The notes under the pieces were generated by a model. It saw only the letters and a program-made list of their open reading frames with translations. It was not told the DNA's origin and searched no databases. Of a stretch of 56,852 bases of DNA, positions 32,139-32,677 are shown one piece after another; within the stretch, counting starts at the first letter, position 1; every line of letters starts with the position of its first letter. The stretch comes from an uncultured Alphaproteobacteria bacterium (GTDB lineage Bacteria; Pseudomonadota; Alphaproteobacteria; UBA7879; UBA5542). The DNA is taken from contig CAIWGV010000038.1 in the NCBI GenBank assembly GCA_903912365.1, positions 1-56,852 of the forward strand, given 5' to 3'. Both the position numbers and the translations under genes were made by a program.

Positions 32139-32209
32139 GTAAGACCTCTATTTTTAAATTTAAGTATAGCAACTATTATGAAGCGCTCAAGTCTTTTGAG
32201 CCCATAGAC

Positions 32210-32565
32210 CAGGGCCGACGCATCTAAAATGAAAACAAGATCGTCACCCTGAGCCCTCGAAGAGGGCGTCAGGGCCCCGCTTAGAGTCTCATATTTTTGT
32301 AAAGCCTTCTGCTAGGCCATTTTTATGTTGATAAATACGCCACATAAGATTTGAGGTTACACCTACATATAGGGTGCCCTTATACCTACTGGCCATAATA
32401 TAAACTGCTGGGATCTTCTCCATAGGCGCATCTTAACAAAATATTCCCTTTAGGCTGAAGATGCCGAAAGCGGGGCCCTGACGCCCCCCTAAAGGGGGCT
32501 CAGGGTGACGAGTTCTTTGGCATCGCCCTCTTTGTCCCCCATAAAATTTAGATGCGTCAGCCCTG
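32210..32565. mobile_element. Non-autonomous element with ISAs1-like CAGGG TIRs carrying a truncated GIY-YIG gene
   Basis: 19-bp TIRs CAGGGCCGACGCATCTAAA / TTTAGATGCGTCAGCCCTG (18/19); 10-bp direct repeat GCCCATAGAC at 32200-32209 and 32566-32575; no transposase. Confidence 0.85.
32289..32423 (-). pseudogene. GIY-YIG nuclease (UPF0213/YhbQ-like), truncated to 44 aa
   Basis: MEKIPAVYIMASRYKGTLYVGVTSNLMWRIYQHKNGLAEGFTKI*. Confidence 0.85.
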
Positions 32566-32567
32566 GC

Positions 32568-32677
32568 CCATAGACCACAATTTTTGAGCCATCTACATCG
32601 TCACTGCGGCGCTCATGTAGATCTCTCTACATGTCGCGCCAGGTCCCTCGTTCTGACTCAAAACTTATGGTCTATGG
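32568..32677. repeat. Family B palindromic element (RPE-like)
   Basis: Outer IR ccatagaccacaatttttgag / ctcaaaacttatggtctatgg and inner catgtag-atctct-ctacatg. Confidence 0.7.

Follow-up and report, generated by a model that had tools for sequence, protein, structure and literature searches.

A probable ISAs1-derived mobile insertion cassette carrying an ssnA-type nuclease gene and its hairpins in an uncultured alphaproteobacterium

REP/RAYT systems and REPINs form the familiar bacterial background for palindromes that are dispersed in the company of a small nuclease-type gene. Mobile insertion cassettes (MICs) form another, and are said to have been reported by De Palmenaer et al. in 2004 and by others. 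MICs have the ends of an insertion sequence (IS) and lack a transposase; described cases include MIC231 of Bacillus cereus and the qnrS2 mic of Aeromonas plasmids (PMC4444841). For the ISAs1 family of IS, inverted repeats of 14-22 bp starting with CAGGG and direct repeats of 10 bp are given (PMC11946415), and ISArsp11 appears as an example in Table 3 of PMC6305408. The ssnA gene encodes a single-domain GIY-YIG enzyme of 94 residues (Chenal et al., Nat Commun 2025, PMC11893778), and is flanked on both sides by NTS/SRM hairpin repeats that bear a 5′ tag of the CGTCA type; purified Ssn enzymes cleave single-stranded DNA only, just upstream of the hairpin (PMC11893778). That report leaves open how ssnA and its hairpins move and notes only the IS-like layout, its Discussion likening NTS-ssnA-NTS to an IS.

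The locus described here lies in a window (the whole stretch of DNA analysed, 56,852 nt) that is contig C38 of a 1.17-Mb genome in 47 contigs. A 356-bp element with 19-bp inverted ends and no transposase occupies positions 32210-32565. Its left terminal inverted repeat, CAGGGCCGACGCATCTAAA (32210-32228, plus strand), is of the ISAs1 type and starts with CAGGG; the right one, CAGGGCTGACGCATCTAAA (32547-32565, minus strand), is identical to it at 18 of 19 positions. The end pattern matches the window four times when up to three mismatches are allowed, versus no match in 100 shuffles. A perfect 10-bp direct repeat, GCCCATAGAC, flanks the element as a target-site duplication at 32200-32209 on the left and 32566-32575 on the right, the exact repeat spanning 12 nt because the two following bases agree by chance. 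An unrelated palindromic repeat of about 110 bp, built of inverted-repeat pairs, lies at 32568-32677; the target site falls largely in its first arm, which places the insertion at the edge of this repeat. Relatives of the palindromic repeat are found at 54948-55029 and 55120-55187 of the window, on contigs C46 and C16, and also in the sister species (G001).

Between the ends, two hairpins of the Ssn-related motif enclose an open reading frame (ORF). The left hairpin (32239-32284, plus strand) consists of a bulged 12-bp stem preceded by an unpaired CGTCA tag and reads toward the gene; the right hairpin (32466-32513, minus strand) has the opposite orientation, and its CGTCA tag points outward. 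Spacers of 10 nt and 33 nt separate the left hairpin from the left end and the right hairpin from the right end, respectively. Folded as single-stranded DNA, the left hairpin reaches -12.1 kcal/mol (z -3.16) and the right -13.9 kcal/mol (z -3.83), none of 200 shuffles folding as well as either, and in both the CGTCA remains unpaired just 5′ of the 12-bp bulged stem. An Rfam scan of 31500-33500 (E up to 1) found no family within the element; the same scan placed a tRNA at 33333-33419 and gave two chance-level matches. A structured RNA or regulatory repeat was considered as the identity of the element and dropped, given the duplications and the IS ends. In the ORF list nothing of transposase size fits within the 356 bp, and the sole family-matching ORF inside the element is a GIY-YIG stub. 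The layout drawn in the first-pass annotation, namely a perfect 10-bp target duplication, 19-bp CAGGG ends matching at 18 of 19 positions, two inverted hairpins around a GIY-YIG frame and no transposase, is thus the layout found.

The GIY-YIG gene claimed there is also real as a Pfam match, but the window copy is broken by an internal deletion of 126 bp. What remains is an ssnA-type stub of 44 residues plus a stop (32289-32423, minus strand; ORF list and Pfam), which matches Pfam GIY-YIG at E 3.4e-7 over profile positions 3-39 of 78. The stub retains Y8, Y19, R29 and H33, and its C-terminal half with the conserved Glu is gone; since it stops before the conserved E54/E66, it cannot be an active nuclease. 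An intact copy elsewhere in the genome reads for 93 residues up to a contig end (P0001) and is identical to a 97-residue protein (P0002). Its only Pfam match is GIY-YIG (E 3.9e-16), making it a single-domain protein. Y8, Y19, R29 and E66, which we take to be the catalytic Tyr, Tyr, Arg and Glu of GIY-YIG enzymes, are conserved in P0002 and nine homologs. Homologs of similar length to the intact nuclease number 3268, and NCBIfam gives only a sub-threshold match for it. Apart from the ssnA-type copies, GIY-YIG is matched in the genome only by a 631-residue ORF, which we infer to be UvrC. The gene does not fit a GIY-YIG homing endonuclease: its 97 residues hold one domain and no separate DNA-binding domain, and homing enzymes need such an extra domain (PMC11893778, Results). 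Homing enzymes of this class mostly reside in introns or stand free in phage genomes.

Homologous loci from other genomes (28 in all, from Sphingomonas, Rickettsiales, Micavibrio, Legionellaceae, Patescibacteria and others) were inspected over 300 bp upstream and downstream of the gene. A repeated hairpin-forming sequence, inverted or direct, brackets the gene in 25 of the 28, a count that overstates independence because many of the Sphingomonas loci are orthologous. The cargo of the element is an ssnA-type nuclease gene within its CGTCA-tagged hairpins (SRM), an arrangement published in 2025 (PMC11893778); the kinship with Ssn is drawn here from domain, length and hairpin architecture.

BLAST with the element and inspection of flanks revealed about ten copies or fragments in the genome, diverging by 2.5-5%. 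The first-pass annotation had proposed repeated movement, and the flanks agree: a 10-bp flanking repeat accompanies six of the seven two-ended copies (10/10 in four, 9/10 in one and 8/10 in one). The full form, about 482 bp in total, is split over two contig ends (C3:46359 to the contig end, and C47 from the contig end to 17001); it is 126 bp longer, its GIY-YIG frame is open, and its flanks carry GCTGGATTAG (10/10). The 356-bp form occurs in the window (10/10), at C17:26724-27079 (9/10) and at C4:17908-18263 (no flanking repeat). A left-truncated copy at C4:30937-31224 begins at CAGGGCC within the left hairpin and is flanked by ACCCTCTCGT (10/10), a 112-bp form with one hybrid hairpin lies at C17:173-284 (8/10), and a 43-bp stub at C45:4406-4448 is flanked by CCTTTAGACG (10/10). 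Three further loci hold one-ended fragments, to which the flanking-repeat measure does not apply. The separate end pieces noted before in the window are both there. One, at 17667-17796 on the minus strand, is a fragment of the full form, with the left end, a hairpin and the last ssnA codons followed by unrelated DNA, and is 87% identical over 130 nt to the full-length copy on C3; the other, at 464-530 on the plus strand, is a right-end fragment in which the spacer joins a portion of the right hairpin to a degenerate end that reads TAGGG and not CAGGG.

The four short gene-bearing copies have an identical deletion junction between two TCATATTTT repeats (near 32293/32294 in the window copy, where 126 bp are missing), so the economical reading is that one deletion occurred and its product then reached four or more sites. 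Deletion at repeats of 6-10 bp (CCCTGA, CAGGGCC) can account for the 112-bp form and for each truncated copy; internal CAGGG motifs are therefore not needed as alternative ends, although they may have been used as such. The only intact ssnA copy has a 2-nt deletion in its left end, so that it may no longer move.

A profile search of the assembly with PF01609 (DDE_Tnp_1) gave no match. The reading that the genome has no ISAs1 element was overturned by IS ends at contig starts, four of which matched at the same offset in an end-motif search allowing two mismatches. C20 and C21 share their first 141 nt exactly, C3 and C45 their first 139 nt, and both blocks terminate in CAGGGCCTACGCATGAA, read outwards. 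Their flanks pair as perfect 10-bp duplications, CTTACCTCCC for C20/C45 and CTCACCACCG for C21/C3, so that these pairs are two copies of one IS whose body has collapsed out of the assembly. Read inward, one block opens an ORF with MKEAFEEYFKEVEDPRSL and the other closes it with ...RKWALNILHKAKIKPDQSIKSLMRKNSMSFKHLVNCVNKIIHA, the stop codon falling inside the end repeat. Longer proteins were searched with the 43 C-terminal residues of the IS, which yielded P0122, identical across all 43 and starting with the same 18 residues as are read at the IS contig end. P0122 is a protein of 365 residues with PF01609 and PF13808, encoded on a 1191-bp contig, and scores 352 bits against NCBIfam NF033564 'ISAs1 family transposase' (cut-off 70). 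By these matches the contig-end IS belongs to the ISAs1 family, its putative link to P0122 resting on 18 + 43 identical residues. An 85-nt leader, a 1098-nt ORF and 6 nt past the stop would give the IS a length of about 1.19 kb. The search for an IS with matching ends thus led to the same genome, to an ISAs1 element with near-identical ends and its own 10-bp duplications: 13 of the first 15 bases and 17 of the first 20 agree with those of the 356-bp element, and there are also mismatches beyond base 16. The 43-residue query matched nothing in 17 other genomes of the order, and the 139-nt IS end, searched in the relatives, turned up nothing beyond a solo remnant of 40 nt in G003, which belongs to a related genus.

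The same ends are widespread outside this genome. The exact 19-mer end occurs in at least 120 metagenome stretches, and 80 of these loci were fetched and analysed; an ISAs1-type transposase is present in 24 (tblastn to P0122, 36-48% identity) and an Ssn homolog in none. Pairing exact ends within 3.5 kb delimited ten short elements (135-468 bp) whose interiors are unrelated, and seventeen long ones of 1152-1525 bp, among which those with ISAs1-type transposases measure 1152-1278 bp. The flanking repeats of the short elements score 10/10 in eight cases and 9/10 in one, with one off register. Among the long elements one scores 10/10, one 7/10 and fourteen at most 3/10, and one could not be scored; with 14 of the 16 scorable full-size ISAs1 elements at 3/10 or below, the duplication is not universal for the family. 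Since the exact ends are found both on transposase-bearing and on short elements, they mark a widespread subgroup of ISAs1 elements from which miniature elements (MITEs) also arise. The ISAs1 assignment of the ends made at first sight is borne out by this, and by the fit of the CAGGG start, the 19-bp length and the 10-bp duplication to the traits given for the family and for ISArsp11 (PMC11946415, PMC6305408). Given the end mismatches, and given that the transposases found with the exact 19-mer are only about 36-48% identical to P0122, cross-recognition between the resident transposase and the cassette is assumed here; the resident ISAs1 is a potential helper, presumed from sequence to be compatible with the element ends.

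The ends, the duplications, the copy series, the resident IS with its family and the same 19-mer on ISAs1 elements elsewhere are direct observations, and together they make a cassette between IS ends that is moved in trans, as the first-pass annotation had it, the best reading. We consider it quite probable that the element is a mobile insertion cassette derived from an ISAs1 IS, that its passenger is an Ssn/SRM module, and that an ISAs1 DDE transposase, most likely the resident one, moves it in trans. In the scheme that we propose, where trans-mobilisation, the transposase that performs it and the activity of the nuclease are all conditional, two 19-bp CAGGG ends enclose an ssnA-type gene between inverted CGTCA-tagged hairpins, as in the full form of about 482 bp with its 97-residue gene. 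A single 126-bp deletion between 9-bp repeats would have produced the 356-bp form, which would then have landed at no fewer than four sites, the window among them, and further deletions at short repeats would have given the 112-bp one-hairpin form and the 43-bp stub. An ISAs1 DDE transposase, its likeliest source the resident element of about 1.19 kb, would act in trans by recognising the ends and cutting the target with a stagger of 10 bp; 10-bp duplications arise from such a staggered DDE cut, so one would be left at each insertion. The nuclease would be the passenger and not the engine, and from its homology with the published Ssn enzymes is predicted to bind its hairpin in single-stranded DNA and to cut just upstream of the tag.

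The present state of the element raises the somewhat unlikely alternative that it is a dead relic of an ancient spread, with nothing in the present genome able to move its copies. The distance of 2.5-5% between copies would fit this, as would the truncation of four of the five gene-bearing copies, the reduction of three loci to mere fragments and the damaged end of the intact copy. Empty sites bear on the same question. Contigs of four lake/freshwater runs, the best-matching of which may be the source sample, were compared with 31600-33200 and gave no joint skipping 32210-32565, most junction-crossing pieces being shorter than 31 letters; the only joint in them, 32246>32476 with six shared letters, corresponds to the 112-bp form found elsewhere in the genome. 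In the sister species the genes on either side keep about 75% identity, and the conserved blocks are separated by 249 bp of spacer versus 640 bp here (391 bp shorter), with no homology to the element; identity of about 75% prevents alignment at base level, so this spacer does not amount to a clean empty allele. Neither the relatives nor the run contigs, then, yielded an empty allele; the result in the run contigs would suit a relic, but contigs of this kind cannot show rare alleles. Against a relic stand also the duplications, still perfect in four copies, and the copies of the resident IS, which are identical over 139-141 nt within perfect duplications of their own and suggest recent IS activity.

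The hairpins have a history beyond the element. An iterated nhmmer profile, whose E-values are partly circular because it was built from its own matches, finds 38 members of the hairpin family in the genome (E up to 0.01), and 36 of them were aligned, two with long inserts being omitted. Element copies account for 11 of the 36 and the other 25 are solo. Outer and inner stems covary, with CG in 20 and UA in 11 sequences at one pair, and GC, CG, AU and UA in the inner stem. Eight solo hairpins form four head-to-head doublets with no gene between; in the window there is such a doublet at 2881-2986, with neither a gene between its hairpins nor CAGGG ends, and a second at 55376-55477. A genome-wide end-motif search found no CAGGG end near any of the 25 solo hairpins. 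In the sister species the first 40 nt of a hairpin doublet find three matches. With 25 solo hairpins lacking IS ends, and hairpins in a sister species that gave no match to the element or to ssnA, the IS-ended element did not spread the hairpins, contrary to the earlier suggestion that it could explain the spread of these palindromes (there called family A). The degenerate search string published for SRMs matched the genome five times, never in the window contig, which we read as the string being too narrow and not as evidence against kinship. A strict finder for CGTCA plus a perfect hairpin gave three matches, versus one to eight in five shuffles, and misses bulged stems.

It is conceivable, if unlikely, that two tiers of parasitism are superimposed, Ssn acting on the hairpins in the manner of a RAYT to make the 25 solo hairpins and four doublets, and the gene surviving only as an ISAs1 passenger. 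The hairpin-gene unit may in that case have lost, or may never have had, its own way to move the gene in this genome.

Among all genomes and loci examined, the IS-ended ssnA composite was found only in this genome. The DNA of the element has no copy in 40 relatives; one weak match, in G015, is the coding part of that genome's own ssnA homolog. Nuclease homologs are present in 14 of the 40 relatives and in two of eight within the family, and the sister species (100% complete by markers, 70 contigs) has no match to the element or to ssnA. None of 11 fetched ssnA loci of relatives has an ISAs1-type end within 1.5 kb, and at the 28 homolog loci from other genomes CAGGG ends amount to a lone weak match at each of two, none bracketing the gene.

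This distribution would also fit a reverse order of events, in which an ISAs1 MITE came first and a self-mobile hairpin-ssnA-hairpin cassette then inserted into it, the nuclease module being the active invader. We hold this order to be decidedly unlikely. MITEs with the exact ends and unrelated interiors are common in metagenomes, other genomes have hairpin-bracketed ssnA at many unrelated places that lack IS ends, the gene is patchy among relatives and was not found in the sister species, and NTS-ssnA-NTS has been compared to an IS by the authors who described it (PMC11893778). However, the 112-bp form can be fully accounted for if the large form lost the DNA between two of its CCCTGA repeats, which leaves no sign of an ancestral 'empty' MITE; Ssn is not known to insert itself by any mechanism, and the inner borders of the cassette carry no target duplication or other footprint.

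It is highly improbable that the GIY-YIG nuclease moves the whole element in RAYT-like fashion, with the CAGGG ends as part of its recognition system: the hairpin stems do contain CCCTG/CAGGG, with an inner arm (GTCAGGGCC) that resembles the terminal CAGGGCC, and the copy at C4:30937 and the C45 stub end exactly at internal motifs with perfect 10-bp duplications, but the same 19-mer bounds elements with an ISAs1 transposase and no Ssn (24 versus 0 of 80 loci), the fixed 10-bp duplication is an ISAs1 trait (PMC11946415, PMC6305408), copies with a dead gene lie at four separate sites, Ssn enzymes cleave only single-stranded DNA (PMC11893778), and both variants are equally explained by deletion at microhomologies of 7-10 bp. 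A bolder extension of the unlikely two-tier reading would have the CAGGG/CCCTG stems of the hairpins serve as surrogate ISAs1 ends, the DDE transposase moving hairpin-bounded pieces; if so, the two variants that end at internal CAGGG with perfect 10-bp duplications would be the traces.

Under the preferred reading of an ISAs1-derived cassette, the composite is one selfish module riding inside another, a known kind of mobile element of which the window copy is decayed. It offers a natural case of a gene-plus-hairpin module as the cargo of a DDE transposon, in a genome where solo hairpins spread or persist independently of the IS vehicle. For the little-studied ISAs1 family, the 19-bp ends and the 365-residue transposase constitute a test pair for cross-mobilisation, and the intact Ssn with its two cognate hairpin variants is usable for tests of specificity. 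The resident IS also illustrates how a transposase can seem to be missing from an assembly when repeats are collapsed in metagenome bins.

The first-pass annotation knew of no described element with this architecture. Its two parts are known, hairpin-bracketed GIY-YIG genes from PMC11893778 and IS-ended cassettes from PMC4444841; in literature searches on ISAs1-derived MICs or MITEs and on IS-linked SsnA, none of the papers listed and passages cited describes the composite. The parallel with RAYT drawn at the same time holds as an analogy. REP/RAYT systems and REPINs (discussed in PMC11893778) likewise have a small nuclease-type gene between inverted palindromes and dispersed gene-less doublets, of which there are four here; the enzyme here is GIY-YIG and not an HUH/Y1 (IS200/IS605-like) transposase, so RAYT is an analogy only.

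With NTS-ssnA-NTS as described in PMC11893778, the element shares a single-domain GIY-YIG protein of about 95 residues, inverted CGTCA-tagged hairpins on both sides and scattered solo hairpins. The intact 97-residue copy fits the length of Ssn proteins (about 94-100 residues), whereas the 44-residue window stub does not. The module differs in lying between IS ends and, in the window, in having a broken gene, and the stems of its hairpins are longer than those of the published SRMs, bulged and outside the degenerate search string.

With ISAs1 IS such as ISArsp11 (PMC6305408), the element has in common a 19-bp inverted repeat starting CAGGGC and a 10-bp direct repeat; in contrast to them it is without a transposase and measures 356 bp (482 bp in full) versus about 1.15-1.3 kb. 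Like MICs and bacterial MITEs, the element has inverted ends of IS type and a target duplication, holds a passenger gene where a transposase would be, and is presumed to be moved in trans by the cognate IS; its deletion derivatives likewise grade into MITEs. It differs from the MICs in that its ends are those of the ISAs1 family, and in that its passenger is a nuclease gene together with its cognate hairpins and not a metabolic or resistance gene.

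The ISAs1-family insertion sequence (IS) proposed as the source of helper transposase for the element is roughly 1.19 kb long and is present in this genome (G000) in two copies, both of which were collapsed out of the assembly. Its collapsed ends lie at four contig starts (C20:1-141, C21:1-141, C3:1-139 and C45:1-139), and the 10-bp duplications of the IS copies, which pair these flanks, imply that the contigs join as C20-IS-C45 and C21-IS-C3. The absence of such a transposase from G000 was a misleading result of a family search on the assembly alone, the IS being collapsed at contig ends. 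G003, a genome from a related genus, contains a solo 40-nt remnant of the right end of this IS, 95% identical, at C2:662686-662725 (1501-1541 of locus L039). The remnant adjoins an unrelated ORF of 439 residues.

Among the matches listed for environmental contigs carrying the exact ISAs1-type 19-mer end (loci L059-L138), MITEs of 135-276 bp are common that share these termini but not their interiors and are flanked by perfect 10-bp duplications; a duplication is missing from most of the full-size IS copies bounded by the 19-mer.

The only copy of the element with an intact nuclease gene, L001, may be immobilised, because its left end (C3:46359-46380, reading CAGGGCCCACATC...) carries a 2-nt deletion and one substitution. 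At the complete 356-bp copy on C4, comparison of the flanks (17898-17907 and 18264-18273) revealed no direct repeat; they resemble an imperfect inverted repeat instead, possibly a product of recombination between copies.

In the window, most of the target site of the element derives from the left arm of a palindromic repeat of ~110 bp (32568-32677), which is unrelated to the CGTCA-tagged hairpin family. Diverged copies of this repeat are present at 54948-55029 and 55120-55187 of the window and also on contigs C46 and C16, and the sister species (G001) has several. A minus-strand ORF (31524-32138) has the element 72 bp upstream of its start, and about 770 bp to the right of the element is a minus-strand tRNA gene (33333-33419; Rfam, 59.6 bits).

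Hairpins also occur outside the element. A further subfamily, starting ACCTGTCCATACCATCA..., is found at contig ends (C10:28051-28107, C23:5207-5262, C28:99-151 and C34:129-184), embedded in another repeat that breaks the contigs and that may be another collapsed element. Four head-to-head doublets of CGTCA-tagged hairpins (window 2881-2986 and 55376-55477; C5:13366-13473 and C5:23223-23329), their members separated only by a short spacer, look like the gene-bearing module minus its gene, as in REPINs.
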